A stretch of DNA of 62,905 nt, the filler included, from Rhabdomonas costata (lineage: Eukaryota), in the NCBI GenBank assembly GCA_019059605.1. It is 45 parts of 45 records of this genome, joined end to end, with 100 filler letters (N's around TTAATTAATTAA, not from the genome) between each part and the next. Parts side by side here need not be neighbours in the genome. Positions count along the whole stretch, not along the records: positions 58,806 to 60,105 come from JAHMHO010020135.1; positions 60,206 to 61,505 come from JAHMHO010020136.1; 43 more parts are not named here. One strand, 5' to 3'. A program made the translations under genes and the position numbers. The notes beneath the pieces were generated by a model, which ran no database searches, was not told the DNA's origin, and saw only the letters and a program-made list of their open reading frames with translations. Position 1 is the first letter of the stretch, and the number at the start of each line of letters is the position of its first letter. Positions 1,299 to 62,905 of the stretch are shown piece by piece.

Positions 1299-1398
1299 NN
1301 NNNNNNNNNNNNNNNNNNNNNNNNNNNNNNNNNNNNNNNNNNTTAATTAATTAANNNNNNNNNNNNNNNNNNNNNNNNNNNNNNNNNNNNNNNNNNNN
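1299..1398. other. Artificial contig linker (N44-TTAATTAATTAA-N44), repeated about every 1.4 kb through the window
   Basis: An identical 100-nt block with six-frame stops recurs at 1299, 2700, 4101, 5502 ... 61506. Intervening segments are all about 1300 nt. Confidence 0.99.
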
Positions 1399-1555
1399 GT
1401 GTTTGTGTGTTCGCTACGCGCATACTCTCCGCTTTAGCCAGCGACTCCTCTTAAAGTTCGGTTTTGGTGTGATTGCGATTTGCCACTGACGCGTTGAGTG
1501 GTTATGGGGCGTAAGCGCGATGGGTGCCATGGTCCGTTCAATTGCGCGTTGCTAG

Positions 1556-1987
1556 GAGGAGGAGAAGATGTTCATGAACGTGGGCGTGGGGTCCGATGTT
1601 ACTCTCAAGGTGTGTGAAAAACGTGTGGGCATTGTTCACATCCCCGTATGTCTGTTGGTGCACTTGAGTGTTCAGGAGGTCTGTTCAGGGTTCAGTGAAC
1701 TGTGCAAATAGGGCTGCCGGATGCAATTTCTTTGCTACTGCTTCTCGTTAGCCAGCGATATTTGCTGAACGGGTGCTTCCTAGGAACTCGCGGTGATGAT
1801 CAAGGACATCGTGGGGTTCAAGGGGGAGATTGTATGGAACACCGCCATGCCGGACGGCACCCCCCGAAAGCTCCTGGACGTGCACCGGCTGACTGAGCTG
1901 GGGTGGACCGCGAAGACGTCTCTTCCAGACGCTATCCGGCTGTCTTACCAATGGTTCCTGGACAACTGGAAGGACGCCAGGAAGTAA
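1556..1987 (+). CDS. GFUS: GDP-L-fucose synthase, last two exons (1556-1609, 1784-1987)
   Basis: A GT-AG intron (1610-1783) joins in frame EEEKMFMNVGVGSDVTLK|ELAVMIKDIVGFKGEIVWNTAMPDGTPRKLLDVHRLTELGW. NVGxGxD and PDGTPRKLLD are family motifs. Ends in TAA. Confidence 0.93.
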
Positions 1988-4230
1988 GAAGCCTTCTCCC
2001 CACACCCACCATGCCCTTCTACCCTCGCACCGCCCCGCGCTCCGAGAACGAGATACGTGCTACTGCTGCCAGGGGAGCTTCTTCTCTGCTGTTCGTTTGA
2101 CTTCCCCCGCCCCAGGGGGTTTCCCATTGGACTCTGTGTGCTGTTGTTATTCTTATTTGGCTTTGAGTGGGATGTCCCGGAGAAGACATCTGTTGATTTG
2201 ACAATATTGATCACCTGTCTGTGAATGGCTCGCTGCACGGGAACATTTCGCAAGGTGTCTTTTTCGCTTTTTGGATGTTCACTTTGTCGGTTGGAGGGAG
2301 ATTCACGATTTTCCTTGGTAGAGCTCACCCCCCCATTCGGGAATTTGCGTACTTCTGTTCTTATGCTCTTCTTGGTGATCTTGTAGGTCGATGTCACCAG
2401 TCGCTCAGTTGAGACAGGTTGGGACTCTGGATGCAGGTGCTCCGTTTCTCTGGAAAGGGCTGCTTCGAGAATTTTCTATGTGGCCCCCTAGACCGCACAC
2501 TAGTAACTGCACAAAGTGCTCCGGTGATCAGACTCTACCTTCCCCTCCAGTTGGTAGAGTGTTTCGCGGATGCAACCGGAAGGCTTCTGTGCTCCGCTTA
2601 TGTTACCCCACCACTATCACCACCACCCCTTACTTTCTTTTCAGGTTCGGACCCGGCCGCTGCTTTTCTTCGTTGCTGGTTATATTCACCCCACCCCCCN
2701 NNNNNNNNNNNNNNNNNNNNNNNNNNNNNNNNNNNNNNNNNNNTTAATTAATTAANNNNNNNNNNNNNNNNNNNNNNNNNNNNNNNNNNNNNNNNNNNNT
2801 GTTTTTGGTGGAAATTGTTCCCTTGGGGAAAATTTTTTCACATGCCTGCGTTGTGGGTGATTCCCAGTGACTGAGCGACGAGTGTCGAGGCATCCGGAGC
2901 TGAAGCACCCGAACGTGATGGTCCCCAGGTGATGTACCCCATTCCTCAGTGAAGAAGTGCAACGCTGTGCTTTCATTCTTGACATCGAATCCTGATGAAG
3001 CTGTCGTAGGTCGCTGACTTAGATGCTTCTGCGTTTCGGGTTGTTTCGCAGTTCCTGTCGTCCTCGCATCTGCTGCAACCTCCACCTTTGGTGTTGCCCT
3101 GAAGGCAAGCTTTTCGCTCCTGCCTTTCTCTCTCTCTCTCTCTCATGAAAAGCACCGTCTTGAAGTATTTGGTTGAGGTCAGGATTGGATCCAGAAGTCG
3201 GGGGGTGCGAATTGGAAAACTGTCAACAATTTAAGCGCAAAAGGCTCATCGTTCCAGAAATTATGAATGCGAACCGCAATGGGATTTCTTAGTTTTTTTA
3301 ATGCCACACGAAATCAGACCACTCAGCTGAAAGCTGAAATGCGAAGTAGGTTGGCGCGGATCTTGTTATCAAACGGAAATTGTATCTCGGTCTCGTTTGA
3401 GAACATCCATACATAGTCAGTCTTCCGCACCTTTCACTTTTAATTCATTTCATCTCACGCTACGTTCAGGTTTGTGGTAATCTCGTGCCGAATGTCGCCT
3501 CGGCCTTGTCCTTCATTTTGTAATAAGGCTGTTCTCTAACATGAGGTTGGCTTCGTCGCGTTGCAATCTTTTCCAGCCCCTTCTCCTTTTGTTCTATTGC
3601 GTTAGCGGTGGCCGCGTATCCTCTCTCTCCTCTTCACTACCAACAGCAGCCCCTGCGAGCTAAATGGGCCCACCCCCTGGAAAGCTTTTTATTGTGCGGT
3701 GCCCCGGGCGCCACGATTACGGAGAGATGATTACAGCGATGCTGTTGAGACCGCATTCCCACCGCCCATGGGCTCAGGCTTTGCGGATGCAACCTCGGGT
3801 CCTCCTGGGCGTCAACACCTCCTCCCCCTTCCCGTCTCTTCATTTCTCGTCTTATCTCGCTTTTATGATAAAAAGAAGAAATCACGGGGTGAAGTGGGGC
3901 GTCCGTGAAAATGAGAGAGTTTCTGAGAAGGAGACAATTGGTCTTCCTTCTCCATTCCCGCATTGCTGCCGGAGTGGGCGGCTGGGAAGGGAATGTATCC
4001 TGGGAGGGCGAGGGGGGGCTTCAACATGTCATGGTCCAAAAGGGAACTCTGGTTATCGTTATCAGTGGTAACAATTGCACACTCCCTTCCCCAACAAAAC
4101 NNNNNNNNNNNNNNNNNNNNNNNNNNNNNNNNNNNNNNNNNNNNTTAATTAATTAANNNNNNNNNNNNNNNNNNNNNNNNNNNNNNNNNNNNNNNNNNNN
4201 ATGGGGTGTGACTAAGTAAGAGGATGAAGA

Positions 4231-25480: not shown

Positions 25481-28400
25481 TCGATGCGCGTGCATTTTCT
25501 TTCCTTCCGATGCGATAATGTTCATGCGCCCAATTATCTACATTGGATAGGGGAAATGGTCCTTGCTGCTTGCAAGCACCAGTGAATACATTTAAGCCTT
25601 TCTCTTCGCTTGTGATTCATCGTACTAACAATTTTTTGTTCACGGAATCTGGCAACGAATGAGGCTTGAGATCACACCTCTCTATCCCCCCACTCCTACA
25701 CACCCACCCAGCAGCACTACGACTATGTCTTTTGTTGCTTCCCCTTTTGCGCTACTCCTTCTGCAACCCGGCGCTCCGTTTTTTGATTACATTCGCAACC
25801 TCGCGCACCTCACCTCTCCTCACTGTACTGCGTTCGTTCCTCGTCTCCCTGTACCCGATCAGTCCGCTCCGGCCCTATCATTCAATTTACCCCGTCCCTA
25901 CCCTGCGCGCCTCAATTCGGTCACCTTTCCATTTTCTACACCTTTCTATTATTCCTTATCCTCTACTGTTTTCGCTTCAAGTACTTTACCTCGAGCGCGT
26001 CCTTTTTGATTTGGCTTCCTTTTTTCTGTGCTGCTTAACGTCCTGTAACACTTTTTTGATGTCTCATAAAAGAGAAAGAGCGTCGATTAATAGCGGAAAA
26101 TTATCAGAAGTTGTTTATTGGCACAGATTCAACCATTGCGTCATGCAAGCTCTGCCCCATGATGCGCAGCCCAGTTGAGCCGTGCCCTTTATTTAGGCGC
26201 GGGACTGAAGCACCGAGGAAGTGTGTTGACAATTCAGGATACCTCACTGATCGCTGTATCCGTGCTGATCTACTTGACTCTTCTGCTGGGGAAAAGAGAA
26301 TGCGCCACATGCAACCTCGTTTTTTTATCGATTTTAGTTTGTTCTTAGGACTTGCGCTAATCGCTGAAATTTCGCTGTGGGCACATTCTTTCACCCACCC
26401 TGAAGCGGAAAGGAAGCTTTGCCAAGATGAGCCAAGACATTTGCCAAGACATTCAAAGCGTTCAGCAATCAATTTGCCAAAGCGATGCAAAAGTTTGGCA
26501 CCAACCCCCCCNNNNNNNNNNNNNNNNNNNNNNNNNNNNNNNNNNNNNNNNNNNNTTAATTAATTAANNNNNNNNNNNNNNNNNNNNNNNNNNNNNNNNN
26601 NNNNNNNNNNNGGTGGGGGTTCAAGGGCGGCACAATAGTGTCGCCCTTGAACCCCCAAACCAATTTTATCTCAGACCTTTTTTTTAGCTAAAAACATACT
26701 CGAACCAGCTTTCAGTCTGACAGCAAGTTTCCCATTTTGGCCCGAAGTGATGCAAAATTAATTTTTATTGATGAGAATTTGAATTTTTAGTCCATTAGGG
26801 GGTTAGGGCCTGAAGCTAGATATTAAGTTTGCACCCCCCCCCACTCCCGATCTCCCGATGATGCGCTGCGGGATTCGGTTGTTTCGTTATTTGTTTGGTT
26901 TGTTTGGTTTGTTTTACCACTGAATGGGAATGCACTGGGGTTCGTGCTTACAGCAGTGATGAACGGGAGTAGTCCTTGTTTGATCCTCGTCCCTCCTGCC
27001 TGCTGCACGTGCAAAAAAAAACAGCGACAAGCTCTCGCGCCCGGCACCTTTGAAGTCAGTGCTCCTTCGCCTGCAAGATTCAAAGGCCTCCGTGTAATTC
27101 CCCTCGAGTCGCCTCACCCCCTTGCAGAGCTTTGTTTGGGTGGCTGCTCACCTTTACACGACACACGACACACGGGGCACGGTTTACGTCCATGTTTTTT
27201 AAATACTCTCTCGTTTTCGCCTTTTGCTCTCCTGAAAAGAAAAGCTCTCCTGGAGTGAGATCGTTGCAAAGGGAAGAGAAAAAGAGACCGTTCAGAACTC
27301 CAATTCCGTTGGTCCTCGGGTTCGGTTAGGTATCTAAAGATTTGGAGCCCACTTGCGTTTCCGTCTGCACAGCCGAAGGTGGTGGTGCACCTGATTTCTT
27401 TTCTCTTTGAACTCCTTCCCGCTTGCTGCTTTTTTGGGGAGGGGTTCTTTGTTTTCATGTTTTTTCATGTATTTTTGTTCATGTGCTTGTGTGTGCCCCT
27501 GCGAAGTGCACGAGTTGTGGTCAAATGCGGGAGAGCCAAGGGCATTCGTCCTGCCGACAGGTGTTGTACACACACACCGCGCTTGCCTCTCTCTCTCTCG
27601 TTTCAGTGTAACTACATCAAGCTGTGTTCTAAATCTTCCCTCTCCTTCCTCTTTCCTCACTCTCGCTCCCGCCGTCTTCGCTGGGTTGTTTCCAAAACAG
27701 AGGAGAGAAGAATGTGTGCTGAAACTCCATTGCGGGTCTGTTTCGTTTTCTCCCTTTACATTCCAAGGGTGCCAATGTTGAGCCTTCAAGGGTTACACAC
27801 GGACCCCCACTCCGATTCTTGACGGGCTTCATCTGGGCCGGTATATAGATATGGCCTACCCTCCTCATCTTTCTGGCCCCTCTCCCCCTTGAACCCCTCT
27901 CACACAACACANNNNNNNNNNNNNNNNNNNNNNNNNNNNNNNNNNNNNNNNNNNNTTAATTAATTAANNNNNNNNNNNNNNNNNNNNNNNNNNNNNNNNN
28001 NNNNNNNNNNNTAGTCATTTCAGCGAGCTCAAACCCTGCCGCAATGCCTTGTGCATGGTTGGGCATGGTATCCTTTTCTTTCCCTCCGCTCATTTGTCGT
28101 TCTGTGCGTGGTGTCCCGCGCCTCACCTTACTCTTCTTGCTCTGAAGCCATCCCCCACGTTTGGTTTACGATCTCACGCAGTGCGCATATGATGGGTCAT
28201 TGTGTTCGAGTTTTTTGTTTTTGGTTACTGAAGCGATGCATCTCCGCAGTGTGTCTGTAGTGCTCTTTTGTGTTGAGCCCTGCCTGTCAAACCTTCCATG
28301 AATTCCTCCAGGGTTCCAGAGTTCCATGCTGTCTTCTTTGTCCAGGATGTTGTCAGCATCCCTTCCACTTTTCTCTCCCCTTCTCACACTGAGCATGACT

Positions 28401-46220: not shown

Positions 46221-47518
46221 ATGGACTTCGTGACGATGCCGAAAACAGTGTGGCAGTTTGGAGGGAGTGAAGAGCCGATCAACGAGATCTTGACGGTCAC
46301 GGATCGAGCTACGAAGATGGTTGTATTGATCCCGTGTCGGAACACCGACACAGCAGCGGACATTGCAAGTTTGTTTTGGTGGGAGGTGGTTCGTTATCAC
46401 GGGTTGCCGAGAAGCATTGTAAGCGACAGAGACGCGATCTTTATGTCGATCTTTTGGAAGGAGCTGATGAGTTTCTTGGATGTGAACTTGAGAAGATCGT
46501 CGCCGTACCACCCCCAGACAAACGGTCAAGCGGAGCGGACGAATCAGACGATGAAGCAAGTGTTCAGGACTTTGATGGTTGCACACCCAGGGAAGGGGTG
46601 GCAAGAGCTTGTGGTGTTGGCAGAAATCGCAATTAACAGTGCGCCGATCGCTAACACGGAGTACAGTCCGTTCTACTTGAATTACGGGTATCACCCAGTG
46701 TTTTGGTGGGATCTTCCGGAGACCCCGGAGCCGTCAGAAGGTGCCAGGAGAGAGCCGGTGAGACTCCAAGTGAAGAAGATGAAGTACGAGTGGCAGCAGG
46801 TGCGCGCCGCGTTTGAGAAGGAGAAGGAAAGAGCGGCAGCGTATGCGAACAGAAGGAGAGCAGATTACAAGTTTGTTGTAGGGCAGGACGTGCTGATCAA
46901 CACAAAGAAGCATTACAAAGGCAGGTTTGGTGAGCCAGCAGGGTTGTTGATGCCAAAGGCAGTAGGGCCGTTCACGATTGTGAAGAAGATTACAGACACC
47001 ACGTTCGTGTTGGACATCCCGAAAGAGCTCAGTGGAAGAGCTCACCCGGTCTTTCATTCGAGCGATCTTATTCCGTACGAGACCAGAGTGTTGGATCCCG
47101 TGGGAATGCTACCGGAAGACGAGGAAGATGACGGTGAAGGTGATGGAAGTGACGGCCAAGGTCAAGGTGGAGATGGAACGGAGGACAGAAGTGGAGCTGG
47201 TCGAGAAGCGGACAGACCAGTTTTGGTTGGAGAGAAGAAGAACAGTTTCGCGGTGGTAGTTCAGTGGAGAGCCCAGTTTCGGAGGAGCTGGATGCATCAG
47301 ATGAAGAAGAAGGTGGAGATCCAGAAGCTGTAGAGAGTTTGCCGATTCCAGCAAGACCGTTGGAGTACGACATGAGTGTGGAGGATGAAGAGATTGCAGA
47401 TGAGGAATACCCTGATGAGGAGATCGAAGCGGATGATCCGGGACAGTATCACGAACATCCCGAGCCAAGTGTGGAGCAGATCAAGGGAGTGTCGCCAGAA
47501 TTGCAGAAGTGGCTAGAT
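46221..47518 (+). mobile_element. Ty3/Gypsy LTR retrotransposon integrase (rve core + GPY/F) with an acidic tail
   Basis: MDFVT, TVTDRATKMV, HGLPRSIVSDRD, YHPQTNGQAERTN (intact D-D-E), SPFYLNYG, GPFTI and HPVFHSS. Confidence 0.95.
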
Positions 47519-58705: not shown

Positions 58706-58842
58706 NNNNNNNNNNNNNNNNNNNNNNNNNNNNNNNNNNNNNNNNNNNNTTAATTAATTAANNNNNNNNNNNNNNNNNNNNNNNNNNNNNNNNNNNNNNN
58801 NNNNNTGTTGGTTGTCGAATAACTTGTTCAATTTATGGTATG

Positions 58843-59791
58843 AACAATAGTACATACCATAAATTGAACAAGTTATTCGAGAACCAACATCATTACACCA
58901 TATTCCATTATTTATATATACATTATTAGAATTACCACCAGTTATCATAATATTTTCAGAATATACTTGACCTTTAGAATGAACATATAAACCAGTAATT
59001 GTAGTAATAGATGCATATACATTTAACATATTAATAACTAAAGCATCCGGACTATTACAAACTTCAACACCAACACAACAATTTATAATCGCACATTGTT
59101 CAATAAAACTTAATTTTTGACTAACCATAGAAGAAGTAGCAGTTGCAGCACCATCAAAAAATATACCTCGTGCACCATTTAAATAAGCACCAACAATTGT
59201 TAATTTATCCAAAGTACACCATTTACCAATAACAAAAATATCTAAATTTGGATTTTCTGCGACGATAATAGTATTGCCGATAGAGCCTTCAGAACGGATA
59301 GTACATCCGTTCGGAATAATTAATGGATTTTTTTCAACATATGTACCTGGATAAATTGTAAAAATAATATCTTCTTTACCATTGTTAGCAGCTAATGCTT
59401 CTGTTAATGTTTTATAATCATATTGACTTTCAGCCATATTAGAAATATAAATTTCACAAATTTGTCTAGATTTTACTCGAATAAATGCAGTTGAACTATT
59501 AATTGCATCTGTATTATCAGGTGTATACATAATTGTTTTTGTTGTCGGATCTAATAATAAATTAGGTGTCTGTAATGTAGGAGTTGGGACGAAATTAGCA
59601 ATTATAATTTTTACGGTTGCACTATCATCGTCAGACAATGTATCTGTAAAATTAATATAAATATTATCATCGACTGTTTCAATATATAATACAGGATTAT
59701 TAGGTAAGGCTTCAATTAATGCAGTCTGTAATTGTCCAATGTCCAAACCATTAGGAAAATTAGTTGATATAGATTCACATAATGTAAACAT
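58843..59791 (-). CDS. Pectin-lyase-fold (beta-helix) protein of giant-virus type, 3' truncated
   Basis: Intronless, very AT-rich and I/N/T-rich. DYKTLTEAL...IYPGTYVE is a beta-helix cap, and the N-terminal module reads FPNGLDIGQLQ. Confidence 0.8.
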
Positions 59792-59931
59792 TTATATTTA
59801 TAAATCTATATTATTTTATGAGAACTTAGGATACATTGGATAAATAGACTACATTTATACTGTAAATTTATATTTTACAGTGAATAATAACATGAAAAAC
59901 GAAATATAAATTATTAAAAATAATAACAAAA

Positions 59932-59960
59932 TTATATATTTTTGATCTAAAAATATATAA
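59932..59960 (-). terminator. AT-rich palindrome directly after a stop codon (Mimiviridae-type 3'-end hairpin)
   Basis: ttatatattttt-gatct-aaaaatatataa: a perfect 12-bp stem beginning 3 nt after the TGA at 59965-59963. Confidence 0.65.
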
Positions 59961-59962
59961 AT

Positions 59963-60103
59963 TCATATATTATTTAGTCGTACACATTCTGTACAAGCGA
60001 CTTGAAAACCATTTTTATAACCAATGAGATATCCACATGTATATCCTTTAGCATAACTACTAATTTTTTTTTGTGTCATTTCTTTACCTAGATCTTCAAA
60101 AAA
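59963..60103 (-). CDS. C-terminal 46 aa of an upstream AT-rich gene
   Basis: FFEDLGKEMTQKKISSYAKGYTCGYLIGYKNGFQVACTECVRLNNI*, open to the contig edge. Confidence 0.6.
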   Translation of the reverse strand, partial: FFEDLGKEMTQKKISSYAKGYTCGYLIGYKNGFQVACTECVRLNNI

Positions 60104-61605
60104 ATNNNNNNNNNNNNNNNNNNNNNNNNNNNNNNNNNNNNNNNNNNNNTTAATTAATTAANNNNNNNNNNNNNNNNNNNNNNNNNNNNNNNNNNNNNNN
60201 NNNNNTGTTGGGGGGGTTTTGTGGGTTTTTATGGCCACAGCGAAAAATTCTCTAACCGATGGGGGACATTCACTGCATAAATGTCGTTCCGTTCTTTTTT
60301 GCGAATGATTTTGCTTTTTGTTATCTCGGCGACTGCGATCATTTTTGATGGTTCTACTCTTCTCTTCCCTTTTTTCTTTCCTGTCTGCGTTTGATGAGAA
60401 GTCCACGGTCCGTGAACTGCATCAAGTCCCCGCCCCTCCCCTGCCACCAAAAGGCAAAATTAAGTTGTGCACTATCGCAAAGGGCAGTGCTACGGACACT
60501 TACAGCCACAGTCCGCTAAAATGTTCAATGAATACACACAATTTTGAGAAAAAAGAACCAAAAAGAACATAACTTGCGCTTGTTGTTGTGTGGATACCTT
60601 TTTGCAGGCACAAAAAAGTCCTTGGTTTGTGTACGCACATGTGTATTCCAGTTGAAATAGCAGCTCCCTGGGACCACTGAAACCGCATATGCAACCACTT
60701 CTTTCGAATTCCACTATCCCGTTTCCTTCTTTCCTTGAAAAAGGGACTTGACTCAACGTTGCAAAACCAAACCATATAAACATTCCTAAACTATATATAT
60801 GCATCATTTCCAGTACTGGTATTCGCTAAAACAGCCATCCAGCAAGTGCCCCGTACACTTCACAGAGAAATTTCTGGACCCTTGCAAACAGCCTACGCCG
60901 CGTTAAGGGAGTTTCGCGTATTTCGGCCACACAGTCAGCTAATCCTAAAGTGCATGCTGAGGCCCAAGCGTCGCAGTTCGCCTCAATGGCAATGCGAACG
61001 ATCTTCATTTAGCGCGGGACACCTTGAAAATAAGCTCAAGTGCAAGAAGCTCAGAAGGGGGGGGGGCAAAGGAACACGGCATCGTCCCAAATAACCAAGT
61101 TTCGCACAGTGCACTCGAAAAATAAAAAGGTTCGAGAACGGAAAACACGTCGTACGCAAATGCAAAGGCTCCTCTTCTCCCGATTCAAGAGAGAGCCACA
61201 CTATCCCGCACACGATCGCTCAGGCCGCAAGCCCACCCTGAGATCCCCTCAAACGTACTCACGCACGTTTTTCGCTCGCGCACGCCTACGAGTCGAAGAT
61301 CACAAAAGAAAAAGAGAAAAGGAAGAGGAAGAGGCGGAACCCCCATCTGGTCACCGATGCAGCTGTATGAAAATGCACGGACTATGAAAGAAAAGAGAAA
61401 AGAGAAAAGCACGTTGTGAGTTTTGGAGAGTGAGTGGCTTCAAGGGTGTTCCCAGGGTTGCCAGGAAGAGGAAGAACTATATAGTAACTGAAGTGCAGTC
61501 GAGCANNNNNNNNNNNNNNNNNNNNNNNNNNNNNNNNNNNNNNNNNNNNTTAATTAATTAANNNNNNNNNNNNNNNNNNNNNNNNNNNNNNNNNNNNNNN
61601 NNNNN

Positions 61606-62105: not shown

Positions 62106-62131
62106 TTTCATTTAAAATAATAACAAAAATA

Positions 62132-62139
62132 AAAATTGA
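62132..62139 (+). promoter_or_regulatory. AAAATTGA Mimiviridae early-promoter motif
   Basis: Exact octamer in an AT-rich tract, about 100 nt upstream of the ATG at 62243. Confidence 0.6.
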
Positions 62140-62242
62140 AATTTTTTATTATTGTAATCCTCTTATATATCGTATTAGATCATAGGATTCGTGTAGTAAT
62201 CAACGAATTTCAAGACTTTGACAAAAACAGCAAATACGAACA

Positions 62243-62794: not shown

Positions 62795-62905
62795 CTTTTC
62801 TTTTTTGCAAACAGCAGAAGCTGTAACTTTTATATGTCAACATAATTTTAATATATAAAATTATGTTGACATATAAAAGTTACAGCTTCTGCTGTTTGCA
62901 AAAAA

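Follow-up and report, generated by a model that had tools for sequence, protein, structure and literature searches.

Probable giant-virus origin of an AT-rich contig encoding a member of an unannotated beta-helix protein family

A single very AT-rich contig among contigs of ordinary composition raises the question of whose DNA it is and what its genes might do. The window analyzed here is a stretch of 62,905 nucleotides; it contains 44 occurrences of the spacer TTAATTAATTAA and therefore consists of 45 joined contigs of about 1300 bp each. One of them, 1300 bp long and spanning positions 58806 to 60105, has a GC content of 26.6%, compared with 46-57% in the other 44, and a GC3 of 10.8%. The sole taxonomic sign on the host-like contigs is a Ty3-like integrase of eukaryote type; a 420-aa host ORF matched VWA-like clusters of a protein atlas at no more than 0.89, which is uninformative. 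The AT-rich contig itself holds two partial genes and none of the giant-virus hallmark genes, and its assignment to a virus rests on the relatives of one of these genes, ORF A.

Both genes are co-oriented on the minus strand, and each is truncated by an end of the contig. ORF A begins with an ATG at 59791-59789 and remains open to 58806, giving 328 codons; open frames in 1000 shuffled sequences reached at most 138. It is a real gene with about 315 authentic codons (58848-59791, minus strand), which correspond to the N-terminal third of a beta-helix family of about 780 residues. Its final 13 or so codons are false, because the contig ends in a fold-back in which positions 58806-58847, at the terminus, repeat 58848-58889 in inverted orientation with arms of 42 nt, no loop, and 3 mismatches, and the relatives run about 470 residues further. 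This fold-back is an artefact of the assembly or the library, and it cuts ORF A short. A viral hairpin telomere was also considered for these positions and was rejected: the structure lies inside a coding region, the relatives continue past it, and fold-back ends of this kind occur in three of the 45 contigs in the window.

ORF B (59963-60105, minus strand) comprises the last 47 codons and the TGA stop (59963-59965) of the upstream gene. No relative was detected by tblastn against 145 loci or in a collection of 5.8 billion proteins, so that as a gene it is confirmed no further than its open frame. The minus-strand intergenic spacer between the two genes (59792-59962) is 171 nt long with 14% GC, and in it the sequence ATATAA abuts the ATG of ORF A; the upstream sequence reads ...tttataaatataaATG, with no purine-rich Shine-Dalgarno motif. 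An AT-only hairpin with 15-nt arms and a 5-nt loop (59929-59963, minus strand) begins at the ORF B stop codon. Its predicted stability is -12.6 kcal/mol (z -3.47), equaled in 1 of 200 shuffles, making it a candidate 3'-end or termination hairpin. An earlier sequence-only reading had described a compositional outlier with two co-oriented genes, a 171-nt spacer, and no Shine-Dalgarno sequence before the ATG, and this description holds.

A word-indexed search at 172-550 residues returned no relatives of ORF A; these emerged among longer proteins only. The family thus recovered is known from metagenomes only, has about 780 residues, and has no Pfam family. ORF A matches 95 representative proteins at E values of 1e-3 or below, 58 at 1e-10 or below, and 13 at 1e-30 or below, nearly all of them 720-800 residues long. 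Its best match is the metagenome protein P0006 (E 2.7e-51, 36% identity over residues 6-311), and identities to P0006, P0007, and P0008 run from 36% down to 32%. In a family tree, given without support values and limited to rows that have at least 200 residues in the window-covered columns, the window protein falls inside the family, next to P0006, in a clade with the loci L070/L078 and L071. Among 36 aligned sequences, residues F12, A132, G149, Y151, E153, N155, and P156 are either fully conserved or kept in at least 90%, and the window protein has all of them, along with both the N-terminal FxxG..QL motif and the PGxYxExNP motif of the beta-helix cap. Family members are also found on contigs of 44-52% GC (L142, L079), and the family is therefore not confined to one lineage.

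Existing annotation says little about these proteins. A Pfam search of both ORFs returned one sub-threshold match, to LbH_EIF2B (16.6 bits; cut-off 54), and a sequence search of both against the PDB gave nothing useful (E 0.81). In the protein atlas the viral protein fell in generic beta-helix or DUF1565 clusters only (0.88-0.90), and one of the ten clusters that we looked up carried a name, "hypothetical protein." IMG/VR yielded no close relative of the window protein, and no description of the family was found among the titles listed by a literature search on beta-helix, collagen-like, and fibril proteins of Mimiviridae.

The best named relative was found through structure. Among predicted viral structures (BFVD), the top match of the window protein is A0A481Z030 of Mimivirus LCMiAC01 (30% identity over 311 aligned columns, Foldseek E 2.7e-23); the next match, at 8.4e-8, is 15 orders of magnitude weaker. 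At 784 aa, with the same N-terminal module followed by the beta-helix, A0A481Z030 resembles the full-length relatives of the window protein, and on sequence comparison ORF A belongs to the same family. It is an uncharacterized protein of a metagenomic bin and is less close to the window protein than are P0006, P0007, and P0008. The bin, from Loki's Castle, is placed in the Klosneuvirus branch of Mimiviridae in the relevant part of PMC6401483. The Klosneuvirinae connection that the sequence-only reading had offered fits this relative.

The structure model of the window fragment (pLDDT 91.8) predicts two parts. Residues 1 to about 70 (59582-59791, minus strand) form a small alpha/beta module with a pLDDT of about 95 and the conserved motif FPNGL..QL. 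The sequence NFPNGLDIGQLQ at residues 11-22 of ORF A lies within it, bearing out the N-terminal FPNGLDIGQLQ module named earlier, and at least 90% of the 36 aligned members have F12. The same module also heads five other small ORFs in loci L063, L072, and L083. From about residue 110 the chain is modeled as a three-sheet, right-handed parallel beta-helix of the pectin-lyase-like fold, of which the contig encodes about the first 205 residues (58848-59464, minus strand); against the PDB, Foldseek matched the window model to pectin methylesterases at E 5.5e-5. The contig ends at about residue 315 of the family, before a C-terminal all-beta region of about 370 residues that is present in full-length relatives (residues ~420-759 of P0006). 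A homotrimer prediction for the 314-residue fragment in three copies, run without an alignment, spoke neither for nor against trimerization (score 0.00, mark 0.32).

With its beta-helix of about 300 residues, the family resembles bacterial polysaccharide lyases and epimerases (8ja4, 2pyg) and phage tailspikes and depolymerases (5w6p, 6w4q) alike. Residues 105-408 of a full-length relative align with 8ja4_A at Z 26.2 (rmsd 2.9, 272 residues aligned) and its helix with the tailspike CBA120 TSP2 (5w6p_A) at Z 26.1; across these two alignments the rmsd is 2.6-2.9 over 271-272 residues, with 9-16% identity, and lyases, epimerases, and tailspikes as a whole lie at Z 20-26. The matches in a whole-model fold search of the full-length relative were taken up by the beta-helix. 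Tailspikes also share the layout of the family, namely a small re-used N-terminal module, a beta-helix, and a distal domain, but they differ in that the N-terminal module and C-terminal region of the family matched no phage domain and that the family's genomic context is that of giant viruses.

These likenesses could be taken to mean that the contig belongs to a prokaryotic virus, such as a large tailed phage, whose host bacterium lives alongside the eukaryote, and that ORF A encodes a tailspike or tail-fibre depolymerase. Besides CBA120 TSP2, many phage depolymerases align at Z 20-24, weak PHROG matches were obtained at 7.4e-5 (baseplate wedge subunit) and 1.6e-4 (tail fibre), and the BFVD matches after the first are mostly phage proteins, at 9-21% identity. 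We nevertheless regard a phage source as very unlikely. The phage matches are to the generic beta-helix only, most IMG/VR matches spanning no more than residues 146-236; tblastn with full-length P0003 found no match in 50,697 phage records; and the ORF A start codon lacks the Shine-Dalgarno sequence. Family members occur on NCLDV-type contigs, and none was found in a tailed-phage context in the records searched.

A search of 185,579 prokaryote species genomes likewise found no full-length member and just five partial matches (residues 125-242, 28-35% identity). This bears on the phage reading and equally on a cellular one, in which an AT-rich organelle, an endosymbiont, or a contaminating AT-rich eukaryote would carry a gene of the family. 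The AT-rich, intron-free, and densely packed layout of the contig would fit organelle or endosymbiont DNA as well, but the five partial matches are to the beta-helix, no Rfam family and no tRNA turned up in the window, and all 31 family loci that we examined are gene-dense, virus-like contigs from metagenomes or IMG/VR. A cellular source is accordingly the least credible of the readings considered, and we give it hardly any weight.

What surrounds the relatives points instead to giant viruses. An 89-kb IMG/VR contig (L142) encodes a full-length family member (E 7e-98 with a C-terminal query), with Pox_VLTF3 (59.4 bits; cut-off 25) and Pox_A32 (33 bits; cut-off 22.8) within 10 kb of it. Locus L063 encodes a collagen-repeat protein, a class II aaRS (7.9e-62), eRF1_2 (1.4e-9), and DPRP; L072 has both the large and small subunits of RNR, thymidylate synthase, DNMK, and ankyrin. 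A joint scan of L083 and L084 detected EsV_1_7_cys (9.3e-162), a class I aaRS, MutS I/III/V, RNase III, and TnpB, along with a weak match to TerL_ATPase (2.9e-4). The MutS domains probably belong to an 875-aa ORF (L084:14422-17046), the only match to the P-loop pattern among the ORFs of L082-L084. In 4 of the 31 family loci (L058, L079, L081, and L143) the ORF immediately upstream of the family member, on the same strand, has collagen repeats. The neighbors VLTF3, A32, eRF1, and ankyrin, and the Mimiviridae promoter described below, stand against the phage reading.

The nearest relatives with context, L070/L078, are less telling. They encode a fusion of T5orf172 with a helicase, a fusion of type I restriction-modification methylase and specificity subunits, RNase T, UvrD/Cas4, and a weak RING finger, with no NCLDV-specific Pfam family; restriction-modification and T5orf172 genes are common in phages too. 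Capsid_NCLDV (PF04451) gave no hit in four and in two IMG/VR records with distant beta-helix matches only, a comparison in which the controls were also silent and which carries no weight either way.

Section 3.2 of a review of these viruses (PMC6163669) gives the AAAATTGA early promoter, 3' hairpins, and MutS7 as marks of Mimiviridae. In L143, 8 of 15 genes have AAAATTGA within the 100 nt upstream; in L083 the count is 8 of 19 and in L063 it is 5 of 18, with the motif mostly 30-60 nt from the ATG. Shuffled sequences averaged 0.19-0.31, and counts as high as those observed never arose in 2000 shuffles. L070 showed no such enrichment (1 of 12 genes, with 332 of 2000 shuffles as high). The motif is absent from the 171-nt spacer of the window contig (59792-59962), which is the single spacer that the contig has and precedes a probable late gene. 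A 3' hairpin is present at the ORF B stop, as a single instance of a statistical feature, and the contig carries no MutS7 gene.

Since the contig is AT-rich and the relatives of its gene lie only in giant-virus genomes, it is most likely giant-virus DNA, and a giant-virus origin is well supported by these sequence comparisons. We think there is a good chance that the contig comes from the genome of a giant virus (Nucleocytoviricota), probably one of the Mimiviridae/Imitervirales, whose DNA was sequenced along with that of a eukaryote with a GC content near 50%. The earlier proposal of a giant-virus origin is thus upheld: relatives lie near VLTF3 and A32 and among aaRS, eRF1, MutS, RNase III, EsV-1-7, and collagen-repeat genes, AAAATTGA is enriched in three member contigs, and full-length members are missing from the prokaryote genomes and phage records searched. 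Its further assignment to Imitervirales stands in part, favored by the enrichment in L143, L083, and L063 but not by L070, which belongs to the window's own clade; we consider that placement probable.

A viral sequence may still reside in a cellular chromosome, and the contig could be part of a GEVE integrated in the genome of the sequenced eukaryote, as opposed to free or replicating virus. The remaining contigs in the window are eukaryote-like, and there is a precedent in a euglenid: eight GEVEs are reported for Euglena gracilis in the relevant section of PMC12455990, a likeness to the contig in that both are giant-virus sequence in a euglenid (here putatively euglenid) assembly. Those elements, as that section describes them, are large, eroded, integrated, and of the Asfuvirales; the contig is 1.3 kb long and intact, with no host junction, and its relatives carry marks of Mimiviridae. 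Neither contig end has a host-like flank, the frame is intact over 315 codons, and there is no amelioration, GC3 being 10.8% compared with a GC of 46-57% in the host contigs. We judge integration unlikely on balance, yet worth keeping in view, as a recent insertion may be compatible with the absence of flank, amelioration, and frame decay. A composition unlike that of the host contigs, together with an intact frame, implies that the DNA came either from virus in the sample, as particles or replicating, or from a very recent insertion.

Taking the contig as giant-virus DNA, we propose the following account of it. It would carry the 3' end of one gene with an AT-only hairpin at its stop, a spacer of 171 nt that would bear a promoter, and then the first ~315 codons of a protein of ~780 residues. 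That protein would comprise three parts: a small N-terminal alpha/beta module (FPNGL..QL), which appears to head several different proteins in related genomes; a predicted right-handed parallel beta-helix, as in polysaccharide lyases, hydrolases, epimerases, and phage tailspikes; and, judging from full-length relatives, a C-terminal all-beta region. We infer from the domain layout that the ORF A protein may be a late-expressed protein of the virion surface or associated with fibres. Through the shared N-terminal module it could be anchored to a common structure of the virion, possibly along with the collagen-repeat proteins that some relatives encode beside family members, and the beta-helix may bind or cut a glycan of the host surface or of the virus.

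A bolder version holds that the contig comes from an Imitervirales virus replicating in the sequenced protist, in which FPNGL docking modules mount interchangeable distal domains on the virion. We regard this as a long shot, and improbable as it stands. If true, it would describe a new kind of giant-virus surface appendage, akin to the alternative tailspikes mounted by tailed phages, whose distal domains would include small domains as well as beta-helices that bind or cut glycans.

Giant-virus fragments are common in protist assemblies, and the contig is by itself unsurprising. Its interest lies partly in the host. A passage of PMC12455990 on the Discoba names Bodo saltans virus (BsV; Imitervirales, Klosneuvirinae) as their only isolated giant virus, the record being otherwise one of Asfuvirales-type endogenous elements in Euglena gracilis. 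If the host is euglenozoan and the virus klosneuvirus-like, BsV and its host would be the nearest known virus-host pair; this link is circumstantial, and no BsV protein is among the 50 BFVD matches listed. If the assembly is that of a euglenid or other discobid, the presence of a Mimiviridae-like virus in its sample would point the way to a new virus-host pair, and should an Imitervirales virus replicate in a euglenid, it would be the first pair of that kind and the second giant virus-host link in Discoba. The family is sizeable and unannotated, with 58 representative clusters at E values of 1e-10 or below, no Pfam family, and no informative name. Its confident model joins a re-used N-terminal module to a tailspike-like beta-helix, and its members are concrete candidates for surface and attachment proteins, of which little is known in environmental Mimiviridae.

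The spacer string TTAATTAATTAA, with N runs on both sides, occurs 44 times in the window at a spacing of about 1400 bp, and the window therefore consists of 45 separate contigs (1-62905) of 1287-1303 bp each, of which 58806-60105 is exactly one. The GC content of this contig is 26.6%, against 46%-57% across the other 44. The abrupt AT-rich outlier described in the sequence-only reading is thus real, yet it is placed at a contig boundary and not at a junction within a molecule; because the spacers join contigs, any abrupt change at one of them marks a contig edge.

Most of the contig is taken up by ORF A, which runs on the minus strand from an ATG at 59791 to the contig end (328 open codons, with a third-position GC of 10.8%); when the contig was shuffled 1000 times, open frames reached at most 138 codons. 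Upstream of it lie a spacer of 171 nt (59792-59962, 14% GC) and then the last 47 codons and TGA stop of ORF B, also on the minus strand. The pair had been described as two co-oriented genes with a 171-nt AT-rich spacer and no Shine-Dalgarno sequence; shared orientation and spacer stand, and no purine-rich ribosome-binding site was found before the ORF A ATG, but the strand is minus and both genes are truncated. An AT hairpin with 15-nt arms starts exactly at the ORF B stop (z -3.47; 1 of 200 shuffles as stable). In eight of 16 family genes, counted by eye in AT-rich DNA (the window gene, at 59792-59810, and those of loci L057, L058, L064, L066, L071, L072, and L079), an ATATAA box is present no more than about 20 nt from the ATG; it may be a candidate late-type promoter or initiator.

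At the low-coordinate end of the contig, 58806-58847 is an inverted copy of 58848-58889 (42-nt arms, three mismatches). Relatives of ORF A continue for approximately 470 residues past the fold-back point, and three of the 45 contigs have such inverted-repeat ends: 26612-27911 (at its 5' end), 58806-58889, and 62800-62905, with arms of 20, 42, and 52 nt. These ends look like a class of library or assembly artefact (chimeric inverted reads) rather than biology, so that about 13 codons at the end of ORF A are spurious.

The ORF A protein matched nothing in Pfam above threshold (one sub-threshold hit) and nothing in a PDB sequence search, and PHROGs gave weak tail-fibre and baseplate matches. HMMER, run exhaustively against 1.84 billion representative proteins, identified 95 relatives at E<=1e-3 (58 of them at <=1e-10, 13 at <=1e-30), the best being the metagenome protein P0006 (E 2.7e-51, 36% identity, residues 6-311). 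Since the relatives are nearly all 720-800 residues long, the window covers the first 40% of a protein some 780 residues in length. None of the ten relative clusters looked up carries an informative name, and the family is sizeable and uncharacterised. The FPNGL-type motif pointed out from the sequence is conserved across it, as NFPNGLDIGQLQ at residues 11-22. Confident AlphaFold models (pLDDT 91.8 for the window fragment, 88.6 for full-length P0006) begin with a small alpha/beta module (residues 1-~65), followed by a linker of low confidence, a right-handed parallel beta-helix (residues ~105-408), and an all-beta C-terminal region. In structural comparison the beta-helix scored Z 26.2 against the alginate epimerase/lyase 8ja4 (272 aligned, rmsd 2.9) and Z 26.1 against 5w6p, the tailspike of phage CBA120, with many further matches at Z 20-25 among lyases, hydrolases, and phage depolymerases; pectin methylesterases head the Foldseek list for the window fragment.

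A search of every ORF in the relatives' loci with the family profile showed the N-terminal module at the head of five further, smaller ORFs as well (L063 3768-4331 and 7802-8356; L072 3675-4256 and 8979-9716; L083 14390-14968); it is thus a re-used head piece. Two of these ORFs, one in L063 and one in L072, immediately precede a family ORF without the module, as in a split or frameshifted gene.

As a hallmark gene would not fit on so short a contig, the argument for its origin rests on relatives. Several searches speak against a prokaryotic or phage source. Among 185,579 bacterial and archaeal genomes (one per species) there were only five partial matches (residues 125-242, 28-35% identity), and tblastn of a full-length family member against 50,697 phage records gave no match. 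In a first IMG/VR scan, 55 of 56 matches cover just part of the beta-helix, the sole exception, L001, being a true family member. The 89-kb IMG/VR contig L142 encodes a full-length member and, within 10 kb of it, a VLTF3-like factor (59.4 bits; cut-off 25) and an A32-like ATPase (33 bits; cut-off 22.8). Other loci carry a collagen-repeat protein, a class II aminoacyl-tRNA synthetase, an eRF1 domain, and a photolyase-related protein (L063, 29% GC); an EsV-1-7 repeat protein, a class I synthetase, MutS domains I, III, and V, RNase III, and TnpB (joint scan of L083, 30% GC, on a 94-kb contig, and L084, 23% GC, on a 273-kb contig); and both ribonucleotide reductase subunits, thymidylate synthase, and ankyrin repeats (L072, on a 136-kb contig).

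According to a review (PMC6163669, section 3.2), the Mimiviridae are marked by the early-promoter motif AAAATTGA, by hairpins at the 3' ends of genes, and by MutS7. This octamer occurs within 100 nt upstream of 8/15 genes in L143, 8/19 in L083, and 5/18 in L063, mostly at a distance of 30-60 nt from the ATG; shuffled sequences averaged 0.2-0.3, and the observed counts were never reached in 2000 shuffles. In L072 it precedes 3/20 genes (3 of 2000 shuffles as high). The enrichment marks the first three loci, and marginally L072, as Mimiviridae-type. The window contig's single spacer lacks the octamer; the hairpin at the ORF B stop fits the 3'-end pattern. Predicted viral structures yielded one clear relative, a 784-residue uncharacterised protein encoded by 'Mimivirus LCMiAC01' (30% identity, E 2.7e-23; next match E 8.4e-8), a bin that its authors assign to the Klosneuvirus branch (PMC6401483). 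Through these relatives the giant-virus reading is well backed, and we regard such an origin as highly probable; an origin within the Imitervirales, as first proposed, is somewhat favoured.

In a tree of the region covered by the window, the window protein groups with P0006, followed by the metagenome proteins P0007 (locus L070/L078) and P0008 (L071). Gene context for this clade comes from L070/L078 (34% GC), which encodes RNase T, a UvrD/Cas4-type helicase, a weak RING finger, a T5orf172-helicase fusion, and a fused type I methylase/specificity protein; these last two are encoded at 1341-3407 and 3458-5767 of L078, as a T5orf172/MUG113 domain fused to an SNF2/DEAD-type helicase and as one polypeptide with N6 DNA methylase and type I specificity domains. 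Neither an NCLDV-specific family nor AAAATTGA enrichment (1/12 genes) was found in L070/L078. The family is also present on contigs of 44% (L142) and 52% GC (L079), and is therefore not limited to a single viral lineage. A Mimiviridae/Klosneuvirinae affiliation for the window protein's clade is plausible.

The other window contigs look eukaryotic. In a Pfam search of seven long ORFs from contigs of about 50% GC, the only recognisable gene was a Ty3/gypsy-type retrotransposon integrase (46221-47330, plus strand; SH3_Tf2-1 3.4e-12, rve 3e-5), besides a weak sub-threshold EF-hand hit. In the last contig (61606-62905, 47% GC overall), a divergent intergenic region at ~62112-62242 is very AT-rich and includes AAAATTGA at 62132-62139; a small ORF starts 103 nt downstream of this octamer (ATG 62243). 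None of the contig's three ORFs (168, 75, and 98 aa) matched Pfam, and the contig may be a further piece of viral or mobile DNA. Contig 58806-60105 has no host-like flank, a codon composition wholly unlike that of the host contigs, and an intact frame. It is therefore consistent either with an insertion that is very recent or with viral DNA in the sample, whether from infection, from carried particles, or from a virus of some co-cultured organism. These features do not match an old, eroded endogenous element such as those reported from Euglena gracilis, which belong to the Asfuvirales (PMC12455990). Giant-virus sequence in a protist assembly is an already known kind of find.

The family gene is often the last in a co-oriented block of very large ORFs (L062:314-7129, L067:3964-7161, L079:1181-9820, and L143:1470-8807; 1066-2880 aa). 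Some of these are collagen-repeat proteins; a collagen-repeat ORF lies directly upstream of the family gene in four of 31 loci (L058, L079, L081, and L143) and farther upstream in L063. The large ORF of L062 matches PHROG 692, 'virion structural protein' (8.6e-48), with no Pfam match at E<=1e-5. This gene position, together with a layout of re-used N-terminal module, tailspike-like beta-helix, and distal beta region, suggests a putative virion surface or fibre-associated protein, in which the head module would dock the protein to a common structure and the beta-helix may bind or cut glycan.
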